A stretch of 64,000 nucleotides of DNA from a virus (Duplodnaviria > Caudoviricetes), in IMG/VR virus record IMGVR_UViG_3300009873_000004, positions 1 to 64,000 of that record; one strand, written 5' to 3'. The notes below the pieces were generated by a model, which worked only from the letters and a program-made list of their open reading frames with translations, was not told the origin of the DNA and ran no database searches. Below, piece by piece: positions 1,842 through 33,231 of the stretch. The translations under genes and the position numbers were made by a program. How positions within the stretch are numbered: position 1 is the first letter of the stretch; every line of letters begins with the position of its first letter.

Positions 1842-3827
1842 CTAGGCAGGCTGAACGTCCTGGGCGCGGACGAACCAGTCGGAGACGTCCCCGGCCTGGT
1901 CGAAGATGTTGAGCAGGTTGGCCCGGCGCTCGACCACCTGCATGGTCCAGTTGACCACGCGAGTCAGCGGCTGGGGGTTGAAGGGCTGGCCGTCGCGCTT
2001 ATAGAAGGTCATCACTTTGTTGGGGATCTTCAAAGGCCGGGGCGGATTGATTATCCCTTCGGGCCACAGTTCCCACCACTGCGGCGGCTCGGGGATAGAG
2101 TTGACCGGCACAGAAATGCGCACTTCGAAGATGTTGGTTGCACCCAATTTTTCCTGGAGCACGCCCAGGGAAATTGAGTCGTCAACCGTCAGGATGTACT
2201 GGATCATGTCAGCGTCCTCCACATGCAGGGGGTAGCCCCGAAACTCGGTTGGGTTGGGGCTCTCCCGAATCGAAGCCACGTACTGGCGAAATTCATCCAA
2301 CAGGTAGACCGGGGTGTAGTCCTGGTTGGCCCAGGCTTCGTCCGGGTCGGCGGTAAAGGGGGCGAAGCCGACCAGGAACGGGTCCTGGCGGACGTGGTGG
2401 TCATACACCTGCCAGCGCAGGAGCGCGTCCTGCGGGTGATCGTATCCACCCCCGGCATAGAACTCGGTCACGAAGAGCCTGGGTAAGGGCAGGCCGCCCC
2501 GAAAGAGATGGTCGTACAGATAGCGATAGCGCCAGGGCTCCGAACCCGCGCCCAGCGGCAGGTAGGGCGCACCGGGAATGGGCCGGGTGTCAAAGGCCAA
2601 GGGCAAGGGCGACCAGGGGTTGAGGCCTTCATGCACCACCAGGGCGTGCCCGCCTGCGTCGATCGCTTCCACCACTTTGCTCGACAGCCAGCCGAGCAAT
2701 TCCAGGTACTCGGGCGTTCCGGCATTGAAGGCAGGCAGGGCCACCCGCAGGCCTGCCGCCTGGGCCTGCTCGCAGATCTGGCGGCACAGGTTGCCATAGA
2801 TGGCCCAGCCGATCACGCCTTCCGGATCCGCCTCGTTCAGCAGGACAACGTAGTCGATCGCCGCCCGCTCCTGCGGGCTGAGCCCGTTCCAGCGCGAGGC
2901 GGCATAGTCCACGATCGTCGTGGCCCGCTCGGCCACCTGGCTGAAGGACCACAGGTGGATGTCCTGGCAGGCATCCCACTCGGGAGTGAAGAGCCGCCAC
3001 AACGTGGGGAGAAGTGGGTCCAGCGCCCTGGCTTCCAGTAGCAGGCCCGCGTTCTCCACCGAAAGCACGAAAGCGAGCCGATCCCCCTGCTCCAGGATCT
3101 GCCTGGCCTGGTTGGGGCGGATGACGTGCAGGCCGATCTTGGTGCCAGCATTCATGGGCAGGGCCTCCACCACATTCGGGATCCGCACCTGGTAAAGCGC
3201 CAGGCCTTCGCGCAGATAGGAGTGATCGGCCGGGCCGACCCCCGCCCAGGGGTGCCGGTCGCTGTCCTGGTGCAGCGTCCAGGTCGACCAGCCACGCGGG
3301 ACGCGCAGGTTGGGATAGGCCGCAAACCAGCCGGGCCGGTGCGCCAGCAGCTTCTGGCGATCGAGCGACAGGTTGGGATCCAGGAACCACGCCCCTGAGT
3401 AGATCCCGGTCGTGCAGCCGTAAAGCGTATCCAGCCTTCCCAGAAAGGCCTGGATCTTTTGAAAGAGCGCCAGTTCGCCCAAGGCCCCGTCATCTTCCAG
3501 GTCGCACCACACCCCCAGCGGCGGCAGTTCGGGCAGCCATTCCCAGCACAGGTCGGCCTGGCGGATGGGGTCGAGGCCAGGCCGGAAGAAGTAGTAGACG
3601 CCCCACCATTTGAAATGCTTCTTGACCTCGACCAGGCAGCGCTGGAAGACCGGGTCCTGGTTGTAGCCATCGGCAATGCGCAGGATGACGCCATCGGCTT
3701 CCTGCGCCAGGGCATCCCAGTCGATGACGCTCGGGTCCCAAAAGAGCGGATCCCAGGCCCAGGGCGGCACGTTAGCCGGACCCAGGAAGCGGGTCTGGTA
3801 TTTTGAAGAATCGAGTATGTGGATCAT
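1842..3827 (-). CDS. multidomain endolysin: GH25 muramidase, second hydrolase-like domain, C-terminal SH3-like domain
   Basis: GH25 motifs D-x-S-K-Y-Q, IDW, GVYYFFRP, CDLED, YSG..F, W..W.LHQ; second domain begins TKIGLHVI and contains LNEAD and VTEF. Confidence 0.85.
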   Translation of the reverse strand: MIHILDSSKYQTRFLGPANVPPWAWDPLFWDPSVIDWDALAQEADGVILRIADGYNQDPVFQRCLVEVKKHFKWWGVYYFFRPGLDPIRQADLCWEWLPELPPLGVWCDLEDDGALGELALFQKIQAFLGRLDTLYGCTTGIYSGAWFLDPNLSLDRQKLLAHRPGWFAAYPNLRVPRGWSTWTLHQDSDRHPWAGVGPADHSYLREGLALYQVRIPNVVEALPMNAGTKIGLHVIRPNQARQILEQGDRLAFVLSVENAGLLLEARALDPLLPTLWRLFTPEWDACQDIHLWSFSQVAERATTIVDYAASRWNGLSPQERAAIDYVVLLNEADPEGVIGWAIYGNLCRQICEQAQAAGLRVALPAFNAGTPEYLELLGWLSSKVVEAIDAGGHALVVHEGLNPWSPLPLAFDTRPIPGAPYLPLGAGSEPWRYRYLYDHLFRGGLPLPRLFVTEFYAGGGYDHPQDALLRWQVYDHHVRQDPFLVGFAPFTADPDEAWANQDYTPVYLLDEFRQYVASIRESPNPTEFRGYPLHVEDADMIQYILTVDDSISLGVLQEKLGATNIFEVRISVPVNSIPEPPQWWELWPEGIINPPRPLKIPNKVMTFYKRDGQPFNPQPLTRVVNWTMQVVERRANLLNIFDQAGDVSDWFVRAQDVQPA

Positions 3828-3853
3828 GCTATGCTGGCCTCACCACATAAATT

Positions 3854-3882
3854 GCCCCAGCGCTGCGACAACAGCCTGGGGC
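3854..3882. promoter_or_regulatory. hairpin between divergent endolysin and HNH starts
   Basis: GCCCCAG-C-GCTG-CGACAA-CAGC-CTGGGGC. Confidence 0.5.
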
Positions 3883-3907
3883 TTGGCACAGGAACTGGAG
3901 GTTCCAA

Positions 3908-4387
3908 ATGCTTCCCCAGTCTAACATCAATTCGGTTTCCACTCGCTTTTGGTCTAGAGTTGATAGGCTTGGGCCAGACGAATGTTGGCCCAATCATTGG
4001 GCTCCAGGATCGAAAAATCGAGGTGTCTTTCACTTGAATGGTGTTGACACATTCGCTTCCAGAGCAGCCTGGATTTTGACCAACGGGCCAGTTCCAGATG
4101 GTCTTTGCGTATTGCATTCTTGCGATAATGGATGGTGTTGAAATCCAGGCCACCTCTACCTGGGAACCAAGGGGCGCAACAATACCGATCGTAAAGAGCG
4201 CGGCAGAAATGGAAACCTCAAGGGCGAGAGGGCTTATAACGCAATTCTGACAGCAGAAAAGGTCGTCGAGATCAGGCGTTTGTGGAAAGAGGGAAGTCTG
4301 TCTCAATTCAAAATTGCCGATCTCTTTGGCGTATCCAGATCTGCGATCCAGGGAATTGTTGAGCGCAGAACCTGGAAGCATATCTGA
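3908..4387 (+). pseudogene. HNH_3-type homing endonuclease with C-terminal HTH, in-frame TGA at 4139-4141
   Basis: RFWSRVDRLGPDECW...HSCDNGWC*NPGHLYLGT...N..D...RGR...ILTAEKVVEIRRLW...SQFKIADLFGVSRSAI; frame continues past the TGA to a stop at 4385-4387; RBS GGAGG. Confidence 0.85.
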
Positions 4388-4420
4388 CTTGGACAGGTCG
4401 ATGATCCGGATCTTCTTCAT
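4388..4420 (-). pseudogene. orphaned original 5' end of the endolysin (MKKIRIIDLSK)
   Basis: ATGA overlap with the tail-fibre stop; GC-rich codons; matches the GH25 start motif; ends exactly at the HNH stop codon. Confidence 0.75.
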
Positions 4421-31014: not shown

Positions 31015-31936
31015 CGGCAATACTTTCCAGATAGCTGTCCCAGCGCCGGACGGTGATGCCCGGATCGAAATGGGTCAGTGTCCAATTGTAGGCCGGGTCG
31101 ACCATTTCCAGGTAGGGAGCCGGGTCCCTCAGAAAGGCGTGGATGTGGTTGACGAACTCTTCCGAGTTGCGGGCGAAGTGGGCGAAGCCGCCCGTCGTCT
31201 CGCGCAGGGCCGGAATGTCCTGGCATATGACCGGCACCCTGCCCATCTGCGCCTGGGCGACGGAGGTGCAGCAGCACTCGTCCCGTGTGGGGAAGACGAA
31301 CAACTTCAGGTTGCGATAGAAGATCTTGGGGTTGACCCAGCCGGTGATCAGGCAGTTGGACGGCGCTCGCTTCTGGCAGACTTCCAGCAACGGCCCGTCT
31401 CCGGCTAGGGCAAAGGGCTGTGCTGCAAAGACCCAGGCCAGGGCGATAAACTCCAGCGGGCACTTCTCGTCCGCCAGGCGGCTGAGTTTTCCGATCACGG
31501 TCGGGGTTACTTCCGGATCGCGTTCCATGCGCTCAACGATCGCGTAGATCGTGGTGCGGTTGGGCATGCGCAGGTTGCGCTCGGAGGCCAGATGGCTCAT
31601 CGCCACAAAACCGTCCACCAGTTCGGGCGGGGTCGGGCTGGCCGCGATCGAGTGCATGCACTCCACGAACTTCGCCCCCCACTCGTGCGCCAATCTGGCG
31701 TTGTCGGCATAGCTCCAGCCGCCAACCGTGTGGCCGACGACGACTTTGTAAGTGCTCTTGAGTTCTTCCGGGGGTCCGCCTGGGAATAGGCGCATGCCCT
31801 CCAAGCGCATCTGCTCGGCCATTGAGCCATCCGCCGCCCAGAAGTCGTGAACATGCTTGGAGTGCCGGTGCAGGCGCAGCAGGTTGGCCTGGATGCCGCC
31901 CCTATGACTCACGTCGAGACAATGAAGAATATTCAT
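31001..31936 (-). CDS. glycosyltransferase, GT4
   Basis: MNILHCLD...RGG start; LFVFPTRDECCCTSVAQAQMGRVPVI variant of the EGFG..EA motif; ATGA overlap with the HNH stop. Confidence 0.85.
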   Translation of the reverse strand: MNILHCLDVSHRGGIQANLLRLHRHSKHVHDFWAADGSMAEQMRLEGMRLFPGGPPEELKSTYKVVVGHTVGGWSYADNARLAHEWGAKFVECMHSIAASPTPPELVDGFVAMSHLASERNLRMPNRTTIYAIVERMERDPEVTPTVIGKLSRLADEKCPLEFIALAWVFAAQPFALAGDGPLLEVCQKRAPSNCLITGWVNPKIFYRNLKLFVFPTRDECCCTSVAQAQMGRVPVICQDIPALRETTGGFAHFARNSEEFVNHIHAFLRDPAPYLEMVDPAYNWTLTHFDPGITVRRWDSYLESIADGHD

Positions 31937-32545
31937 TCCTTCCACGACCTGCCAACAATAATGGCACTAATGTTTGCCCGTTTGACGCCATAGTTGTCAG
32001 CCAACTGCTGCTGTGTCATCACACGCTCCTTGTAGAGCCTGCGTATTTCTCGCACATCATCCCAGGTCAAAACCGCCCTGGCCGCATTTTCCCCTCTCGG
32101 GTAAGGCGTCTTGCGATTTTTCTTGACTCGCCCCAGGCCATTATCTGTGGCCCGCTTGATATTTTCTAGCTGAGTTACCGGCTCCAGATTGGACGGACAA
32201 TTGTTGTGCTTATTGCAGTCCTTGTGATCGATCTCAAGATCGTCAATAACATCCCCAAAAAAGTAGATGTAGACCACTCGATGCGCCGAGGCCTTGATCG
32301 ACTGCCCGTCCTTGAATGTCGAAAGCCTAAGATAGCGCCCAGCATTCTCTGCTCGCTTTGGCTTTTTGAGTCTGATCCTTCCAGCAAACGGATGGATCCA
32401 CCAATGACGCCAGATTCGGCCTTCATCATCAATCGATAGTGTTCCATTTTGGACCAGACTCAGAAAGAACTTCTCCCCAGGTCGCATTGTCATCTCCTTG
32501 GTAAAAGATGACAATAGTATACAGCAAATGGTGGTATTCAGAAAG
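31901..32545 (-). mobile_element. free-standing HNH element 2 inserted in the GT4 5' end, carrying a recoded replacement start
   Basis: AT-rich 645-bp segment flanked by two versions of MNILHCLD.S.R with different synonymous codons. Confidence 0.85.
31933..32487 (-). CDS. HNH homing endonuclease with C-terminal HTH
   Basis: AHRVVY...IDHKDCNKHNNCPSNLEPVTQLEN; LTWDDVREIRRLY...QQQLADNYGV; RBS AAGGAG; TATACT upstream. Confidence 0.9.
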   Translation of the reverse strand: MRPGEKFFLSLVQNGTLSIDDEGRIWRHWWIHPFAGRIRLKKPKRAENAGRYLRLSTFKDGQSIKASAHRVVYIYFFGDVIDDLEIDHKDCNKHNNCPSNLEPVTQLENIKRATDNGLGRVKKNRKTPYPRGENAARAVLTWDDVREIRRLYKERVMTQQQLADNYGVKRANISAIIVGRSWKE

Positions 32546-32581
32546 CCGGTTGGAATTGTCCAGGCAGTGCAGGATATTCAT
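32546..32581 (-). pseudogene. orphaned original 5' end of GT4 (MNILHCLDNSNR)
   Basis: ATGA overlap with the upstream MTase stop; GC-rich codons ATC CTG CAC TGC CTG GAC. Confidence 0.8.
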
Positions 32582-33231
32582 TTCTTGATCCCCAGCCACC
32601 AGATGACGACCGGATGCAGGCCATCGGGCGGCGTGTTCCAGGAAGGCACTTCCTGCTGCGCCAATCGCACCGGGATCCACTCGCCCGTCATGCCCCGGCT
32701 GATCTTCGAAGCGTACAGTTCCTGGATGATTGCCCGGTTCCCCCAACTGCCGAACTCGACCGTCTCCCACCAGAGCTCCGGGAAGAGAAAGCGGTAGCCG
32801 TCAGGCGAGATCCGCCAGCAGTCCAGGGGAGCCGGGTGAGTTGGATGCAGGTAAGGCGTGGCGACGATCGCCAGCCCACCCGGCTTCAAGACCTTGTAGA
32901 TCTCCAGCGCAGCAGCGAAGATGTTTTGCACATGCTCCAGCACCTGGTCGACGATCAGCACGTCCCAATGGCCGGTCCACTCATTGGGCAGAATCTGAAT
33001 GTCGATCTGTGGGTAGTCACATACCTGGGCCTCCACCCGCTGGCCGTGCAGGGACTTGAGCATGCGAATGATCGACGTCGTCGGCTCCCTGGCCCCGATC
33101 TCCATCACCCGCAAAGGATCGGCCAGCATCATCGTCCGCTTGAGAGTCGCGAAGATGCGCTCGTACATGACATGGCGCACCAGGTCGTGGTGCGCCCAAG
33201 AGCCATCAATCGGCCGCCAGATGTCGCTCAT
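32578..33231 (-). CDS. class I SAM-dependent methyltransferase
   Basis: VMEIG, D...DQVLEHV, YKVLKPGG..IVATP, H..P.DCWR. Confidence 0.85.
   Translation of the reverse strand: MSDIWRPIDGSWAHHDLVRHVMYERIFATLKRTMMLADPLRVMEIGAREPTTSIIRMLKSLHGQRVEAQVCDYPQIDIQILPNEWTGHWDVLIVDQVLEHVQNIFAAALEIYKVLKPGGLAIVATPYLHPTHPAPLDCWRISPDGYRFLFPELWWETVEFGSWGNRAIIQELYASKISRGMTGEWIPVRLAQQEVPSWNTPPDGLHPVVIWWLGIKK

Follow-up and report, generated by a model that had tools for sequence, protein, structure and literature searches.

Results

An HNH gene between two versions of one glycosyltransferase start

We examined a locus in the genome of a tailed phage (Duplodnaviria; Caudoviricetes) at which a gene for an HNH endonuclease lies between two versions of the start of a single glycosyltransferase gene, GT4. 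The virus record (IMG/VR IMGVR_UViG_3300009873_000004) is 83.8 kb long and has direct terminal repeats; the stretch analysed here, referred to as the window, is its first 64 kb (64,000 nucleotides, nt). An activated-sludge metagenome is the sole sequencing run that contains the whole stretch and may be where it came from, and no RNA run is listed as holding it. The locus belongs to a minus-strand block of glycosyltransferase, methyltransferase and radical SAM genes (Table 1). The TGA stop (32580-32578) of the methyltransferase gene MT-A overlaps an ATG at 32581, which opens twelve codons of a GT4 start that are separated from the rest of the gene and that we call the orphan. Past codon 12, the open reading frame (ORF) of the orphan continues into out-of-frame DNA of the insert, where it gains 38 unrelated residues and crosses the ribosome-binding site and start of the HNH gene before it meets a stop at 32429. 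The HNH gene ends in a TGA that overlaps a second GT4 ATG at 31936, and this second start opens a full-length GT4 protein of 311 amino acids (Pfam Glyco_trans_1_4). The insert, or cassette, is located between codons 12 and 13 of GT4, and its last 36 nt form the substitute start.

Table 1. Features of the GT4 locus in the window. GC3, third-position GC; positions are given in the direction of transcription.
Feature	Position	Strand	Basis or remarks
MT-A, class I methyltransferase	33273-32578	-	Pfam Methyltransf_11/23
Orphan, native GT4 start, 12 codons, MNILHCLDNSNR	32581-32546	-	GC3 0.83; fits family consensus and empty-site alleles
Orphan ORF, 50 codons	32581-32429	-	No Pfam match
Cassette, 645 bp: leader, HNH gene and imported 12-codon GT4 start	32545-31901	-	Ends of the repeat copies; break in GC3
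Cassette leader, 58 nt	32545-32488	-	Holds CTGAAT, TATACT and Shine-Dalgarno AGGAG
CTGAAT box	32541-32536	-	Conserved in three cassettes
TATACT box	32521-32516	-	Conserved in three cassettes
Predicted 13-bp RNA hairpin	32515-32486	-	-20.5 kcal/mol, z = -3.0
Shine-Dalgarno AGGAG of HNH	32498-32494	-	
HNH_3 homing endonuclease gene, intact, 184 amino acids	32487-31933	-	PF13392, E = 1e-11
Replacement GT4 start, imported, 12 codons, MNILHCLDVSHR	31936-31901	-	GC3 0.42; codons common to element-borne starts of L031 and L033
GT4 body, native, from codon 13 (GGIQ...)	31900-31001	-	GC3 0.83

An earlier reading of the letters without database searches (the sequence-only reading) had drawn attention to this layout. 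Its coordinates and sequence statements proved accurate, including both ATGA overlaps, the 645 bp of the insert, the eight identical residues and five wobble codons of the two starts, and the TATACT box. Its description of the insert as AT-rich applies in a relative sense only, as a lower GC content of the HNH gene (50%) compared with the genome (62%). In addition, purine-rich strings resembling Shine-Dalgarno sequences (GGAAGGA, GGAGGG) are found in the last HNH codons of the window (31937-31950) and likewise in the related lineages L012, L019 and L020. They stand just before the new GT4 ATG, and therefore the cassette would also supply the ribosome-binding signal of the gene that it interrupts.

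The nearest solved structure to the HNH protein is that of I-HmuI (1U3E; profile E = 1e-10), and the alignment includes the DHKD..N..N motif. The catalytic motif of the nuclease is intact, and its DH..N..N columns are invariant across five homologs. The protein was assigned in PHROGs to phrog_59 (HNH endonuclease), and its putative C-terminal helix-turn-helix (HTH) also to phrog_517 (HTH DNA-binding protein family); the match of this region to Pfam HTH_3 is weak (E = 0.002; 18.5 bits, under the Pfam cut-off of 23). Four close homologs share 52-62% identity with the protein, and in an exhaustive profile search this clade is set apart by 333 bits versus 165 bits for the next match. GT4 proteins of this type were absent from the cultured phages searched, and the best cultured relatives of the HNH protein are below 40% identity.

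Endonucleases within coding sequences usually sit in introns or inteins, and I-HmuI itself is intron-encoded, so a group I or group II intron or an intein that carries the HNH gene and is removed by splicing has to be considered. The sequence-only reading had taken the element to be free of splicing, and no intron was found. An Rfam search of 31500-33000 at E <= 1 returned no family apart from a chance microRNA match, and the 58 nt before the HNH ORF, with none after it, are too little for a ribozyme core. The frame of the orphan ends in a stop and does not form an in-frame intein, and the downstream copy of the GT4 start is complete, with a start codon and an entire N-terminus of its own. The HNH gene, which has a Shine-Dalgarno sequence and a start of its own, is not embedded in an intron or intein, and we attach almost no credence to removal by splicing.

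Origin of the two gene starts

The orphan and the second start are identical in residues 1-8, and their codons 3-7 differ at the wobble position only. Amino acid differences are confined to codons 9 and 11. On the DNA level, the 36-nt copies agree at 22/36 positions, and the longest exact match between the two repeats is 8 nt. The peptide NILHCLD occurs exactly twice in a six-frame search of the window. Furthermore, we scanned the whole genome for start peptides that recur 150-1500 nt upstream, and the pair of orphan and second start obtained the top score (BLOSUM 43); no match at threshold was returned from five shuffled genomes. The duplicated start is real and not due to chance.

The two copies differ clearly in composition. 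In terms of GC3, the orphan (0.83) agrees with the GT4 body (0.83) and MT-A (0.81), whereas the second start and the leader (0.42 each) and the HNH gene (0.57) lie lower. The N-terminal consensus of 64 GT4 homologs, M.[IV]LH.LDNSN[RL]GGIQ, is of the orphan type. Because GC3 composition, the family consensus and the alleles at empty sites (see below) all agree, the sequences identify the orphan as the displaced native start, which has been retained, and the second start as imported together with the HNH gene. The element-borne starts of the window and of the lineages L031 and L033 share the codons CAT TGT CTN GAY nnn AGT; the window orphan and L003 instead have CAC TGC CTG GAC AAY TCN. Two similar starts in direct orientation could also stem from a tandem duplication of the gene start in situ, followed by divergence and the later insertion of an unrelated HNH gene between the copies. 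The new start should then not have the GC3 of the cassette (0.42) next to an orphan with that of the host genes (0.83), nor should its codon choices be common to starts beside the same HNH in other phages. Moreover, the break between native and foreign sequence falls at the same codon on both sides, and we regard an origin by local duplication as highly improbable.

Leader and predicted regulation

The leaders of three cassettes, whose proteins are just 52-63% identical, share the pattern CTGAAT, 13-14 nt, TATACT(A/G)TT(A/G)TCA. In the window, a predicted RNA hairpin begins directly after TATACT, and its 3' arm contains both the Shine-Dalgarno sequence and the start codons of the HNH gene. Analogous hairpins that would hide the ribosome-binding site were predicted in L012 and L019. 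The free energies of the three structures are -20.5, -19.1 and -15.5 kcal/mol (z = -3.0, -2.3 and -2.1), and each of them hides a Shine-Dalgarno sequence or a start codon. On read-through transcripts, the hairpin over the ribosome-binding site would hold HNH expression down, and transcripts from the TATACT box would release it, as in phage T4 endonucleases: with the stem immediately behind TATACT, a transcript initiated at this point would miss the 5' arm. The same arrangement of a hairpin and a promoter that bypasses it has been described for I-TevI, segB and mobE of T-even phages (PMC2988022). As a separate matter, the conserved leader motif ATCCTGAAT was considered as a scarred right half of the target (IQEL codons), and this idea was dropped because the match needs a gap and a substitution.

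Empty, occupied and degenerate sites in related phages

Our comparison covers metagenomic phage lineages, among which L012-L018 comprise 11 contigs. Empty sites are present in L011, L003 and L034, where a start of the orphan type is fused directly to GGIQ, as the sequence-only reading had proposed for cassette-free relatives. L011, an 80.8-kb contig from an NCBI assembly, is the nearest relative by flanking genes (order MT-B, MT-A, GT4, radical SAM). It has the same methyltransferase upstream, and the MT-A stop overlaps the uninterrupted GT4 start. The uninterrupted reading in this contig, ...LHNLDNSNRGGIQANLLRLH, corresponds to the window orphan joined to the window GT4 from codon 13. L034 (P0016), with N at residue 9, served as a control.

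At occupied sites, an HNH gene of the same clade (50-63% identity) ends at the GT4 start in L012-L018, L019, L020 and L033. A fifth homolog is present in L021, where the contig breaks off with the stop codon of the HNH gene. An overlap between the HNH stop and the start of GT4 was seen in L012-L018, L019 and L020. A clear orphan overlaps the stop of an unrelated 72-residue ORF in L012-L018 and the stop of an MT-B-like gene in L019; L020 and L021 have no clear orphan, and in L020 the remnant spans at most five residues. In L033 (P0041; T at residue 9), GT4 lies directly behind the same-clade HNH (50-55% identity). L031 (P0042; V at residue 9) represents a degenerate state, with GT4 behind a 48-residue HNH remnant (1856-2002) that has lost the nuclease domain and joins HNH residues 1-12 to the C-terminal helix-turn-helix. 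ATGA overlaps couple this mini-ORF to the stop of a GT2 gene upstream and to the start of GT4; the GT4 start itself has remained of the element type. A homologous cassette was found in L012, L019 and L033, and the layout of orphan and new start recurs within the same clade in two lineages besides the window. Its presence in three independent assemblies rules out an assembly artefact.

Upstream of the HNH gene, L020 (L020:1311-1465) and L021 (L021:520-675) have a sigma-70-like promoter (TTGACT, 17 nt, TACAAT) and a leader with a long terminator-like hairpin. This leader encloses a possible decayed orphan, which reads MAVLHK in L020 and TAILHK, without a start codon, in L021.

Residue 9 is N in the three clear orphans and V, G or C in the matching element-borne starts. 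A prediction made in advance held for both of the homologs that were picked solely for a residue other than N at this position: one had an HNH gene (L033) and the other a remnant (L031). Furthermore, the window is nearest to the empty L011, with 55.5% identity for GT4 and 76.5% for radical SAM, versus 46-51% and 63.9% for the HNH carriers, which shows that the presence of the HNH does not follow the similarity of the host genes. Empty, occupied and degenerate states that are distributed patchily at one site are the picture expected from the life cycle of a homing endonuclease.

Several other observations concern the surroundings of the site. In wastewater run X2, a relative that is ~90-95% identical and covers GT4 and MT-A diverges exactly after the MT-A stop (window 32577) and would read MKTIELSQGLR, resembling the start of an HNH-AP2 gene in L003; no contig of this run bridges 31904-32576. 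A different endonuclease may occupy this junction in the near relative. The homolog P0004 has the same VSHR start as the window and a partial ORF of 43 residues overlapping its start. A small gene assigned to PF24729, the Acb2/Tad1 hairpin family of anti-defence sponges, is located near the GT4 locus in four lineages (L012:2052-2279, L020:1084-1311, L021:284-517 and L031:3585-3815). A scan of metagenome contigs with the GT4 alignment returned nothing beyond the already known L003, scans of contigs from species genomes with HNH and GT4 profiles gave no match, and pattern scans of IMG/VR for the start peptide, the leader motif and the VSHR allele yielded chance matches or none.

Proposed invasion by replacement of the gene start

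Taken together, we consider it probable that the element is a free-standing, I-HmuI-like HNH homing endonuclease cassette between GT4 codons 12 and 13, which invades coding sequence by replacing the start of its target gene. For cleavage, immunity, current mobility and regulation we infer the following course of events. The enzyme would recognise conserved coding sequence near the 5' end of GT4 in alleles that lack the cassette, approximately at codons 8-15 (LD-NSNR-GGIQ), and would nick or cut there. Repair from a cassette-bearing genome would then copy in the leader, the HNH gene and the 12-codon substitute start, so that an unbroken GT4 gene would be preserved with no need for splicing of RNA or protein. 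The first 12 codons of the recipient would remain upstream as the orphan, still translationally coupled to the preceding gene, and the orphan might also provide the left arm of homology in the next round of homing.

A carrier of the cassette would be immune, with its target split and altered by the imported start. In a carrier, the presumed target is divided into halves between the two repeat copies, and the changes in the imported copy are greatest in codons 9-12, beside the junction. Since no exact match between the repeats exceeds 8 nt, deletion of the cassette by recombination should be prevented. The orphans carry the codon usage of their own genome and are coupled to their own upstream gene, which argues that they arise afresh in each genome and are not carried along with the cassette. 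The arrangement could have originated in a one-sided repair from an intergenic donor of the L020 type, with the left end, for which homology was missing, joined illegitimately. Once present, the orphan would offer left homology to any GT4 start.

A related explanation shares most of these steps and differs just on whether the form inside the gene propagates as such. According to it, the HNH would be an ordinary intergenic free-standing endonuclease and the second start the GT4 allele of the donor, acquired by co-conversion; the left break end, without homology in the donor, would have been joined illegitimately, leaving the orphan as an accidental scar, without a role and bound to decay. The T4 seg and mob genes are an established case of co-conversion of flanking markers (PMC2988022), and the left junction varies among cassettes, falling after codon 11, 12 or 13. 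An intergenic endonuclease would also account for L020 and L021, where the HNH follows a sigma-70-like promoter with no clear orphan, and for the L031 remnant, which is coupled straight to the upstream GT2 gene. It would not lead one to expect orphans in three lineages, each of them behind a different gene, perfectly coupled to its stop and little decayed, nor a window orphan that still fits the family consensus and adjoins a conserved cassette leader. We therefore regard a mere scar as unlikely and favour start replacement.

Several points weigh against start replacement. L020 retains N at residue 9 and has five orphan residues at best, and L031 is without an orphan; therefore the same endonuclease also occurs in an ordinary intergenic form, and the orphan could be a by-product and not a working part. 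The association between residue 9 and the HNH is based on nine loci. The cassettes are old, with HNH proteins 50-63% identical, and no near-identical pair of an occupied and an empty genome was found, so that ongoing mobility is no more than possible. With regard to the leader, the TATACT box has no convincing -35 and was missed by a simple sigma-70 scan, and the three hairpins are unlike in detail, with modest z-scores (-2.1 to -3.0).

Recurrence of the start-replacement layout at other genes

The sequence-only reading had suggested that the element represents a recurring type, and this is borne out beyond the clade of the window HNH by a case with an unrelated enzyme in L003 (L003:2643-3231). 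There, the MT-A stop overlaps an orphan reading MTYRYSDPA, which is followed by an AT-rich HNH-AP2 gene, and MT-B restarts as MPYKYQDAD. GC3 is 0.33 in the new start, 0.79 in the MT-B body and 0.69 in the orphan. At another position in the same lineage (L003:5142-5902), the radical SAM gene that comes after GT4 in the window is reduced to a 126-residue ORF that keeps only its two ends and lies beside another HNH gene; endonuclease activity may have caused this deletion.

A second HNH locus within the window, which the sequence-only reading had set beside the GT4 locus as an independent case, exists in a weaker form. In this companion case, an HNH_3 gene on the opposite strand lies between an orphan and the start of a GH25 endolysin gene (window 3824-4420 on the minus strand and 3908-4387 on the plus strand). 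The orphan, MKKIRIIDLSK, is coupled to a tail-fibre stop, and the new endolysin start reads MIHILDSSKYQ. The similarity of the two peptides amounts to 5/9 residues, and the HNH gene has an in-frame TGA at 4139-4141. The ORF of the companion orphan runs for 198 codons without a stop, antisense to the entire HNH gene, the other two frames containing 6 and 7 stops, and its TGA overlaps the new endolysin ATG at 3827. As this ORF is open through the insert, the translational coupling from the tail-fibre gene to the endolysin gene may be preserved. A homolog search with the N-terminus of the endolysin returned only itself, with no homolog in the L003 record.

More distant HNH_3 homologs (four sampled, L027-L030) are found at ordinary positions and have no start duplicates. 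The start-replacement arrangement is recurrent and not universal.

Discussion

The 5' position of the foreign gene start has a mirror image in fungal mitochondria, where endonuclease ORFs known as mORFs introduce a foreign copy of the C-terminus, by which the native end of the gene is displaced (Allomyces macrogynus atp6; Glomus atp6, atp9, cox2 and nad3; PMC3630166). Like the mORFs, the phage endonuclease ORF travels with a foreign copy of a gene end, which becomes the expressed one, and no splicing is involved. In both systems the displaced native end is host-like, and the two copies are similar in protein and diverged in DNA. The mORFs replace the C-terminus and leave the native copy downstream; in GT4, by contrast, the N-terminus and start codon are replaced, and the native copy is found upstream, where it is still coupled to the gene before it. 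The fungal enzymes, moreover, belong to the LAGLIDADG or GIY-YIG type and reside in mitochondria, whereas the enzyme described here is an HNH_3 protein of a tailed phage. The GT4 cassette works like the fungal kind and is not a member of that lineage.

In phages, intronless homing, co-conversion and gene-splitting insertions are known (PMC2988022, PMC10448857, PMC12724721). As in the intronless homing of T4-like phages (SegF, SegG, MobE; PMC2988022), a free-standing endonuclease gene beside its target gene is distributed patchily among relatives. In T4-like phages, co-conversion of flanking sequence carries immunity of the target, and a hairpin over the ribosome-binding site is combined with a bypassing promoter (PMC2988022); we infer counterparts of both in the GT4 cassette. 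T4 endonuclease genes are located between genes, however, and a duplicated gene start is not described for them in the 2010 review (PMC2988022). The cassette also resembles the gene-splitting insertions of mobE in nrdA of phage Aeh1 and of mobA between T4 genes 39 and 60 (PMC2988022), in which a free-standing HNH gene lies in a coding region without an intron and the gene remains functional. In contrast to those insertions, which split the gene into two polypeptides that reassemble, the cassette resupplies 12 codons and one full-length protein is encoded. I-HmuI of Bacillus phage SPO1, an HNH nicking endonuclease, is encoded in a group I intron of the DNA polymerase gene, and its likeness to the present enzyme is limited to the nuclease core.

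The sequence-only reading had referred the question of a 5' form to the literature. The fungal 3' form was recovered in this way, and full-text searches, with subscription journals outside their coverage, found no description of a 5' start-replacing form or of either form in phages. The 5' form thus appears to be undescribed.

To our knowledge, homing endonucleases have been thought to enter coding sequence only together with a self-splicing intron or an intein, or by gene splitting. Replacement of the gene start would be a fourth solution in phages. We put forward, as a tentative idea, that it is a general third route, beside introns and inteins, for homing endonucleases into phage protein-coding sequence. 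Such a cassette would bring a promoter, a nuclease and a re-spelled start; each homing event would regenerate the orphan as a left homology arm, perhaps also as an operator-like half-site by the cassette promoter, and non-consensus N-termini in phage gene families would be footprints of past invasions, residue 9 of the present GT4 family being an example. The arrangement has a searchable signature, namely an orphan start coupled to the upstream gene and a downstream start with foreign codon usage, and for the present enzyme the predicted target consists of GT4 codons 8-15. Start replacement would account for some unusual N-termini and for some very short ORFs annotated as "hypothetical" in phages, and it may help to explain why the gene order around such sites differs between related phages.

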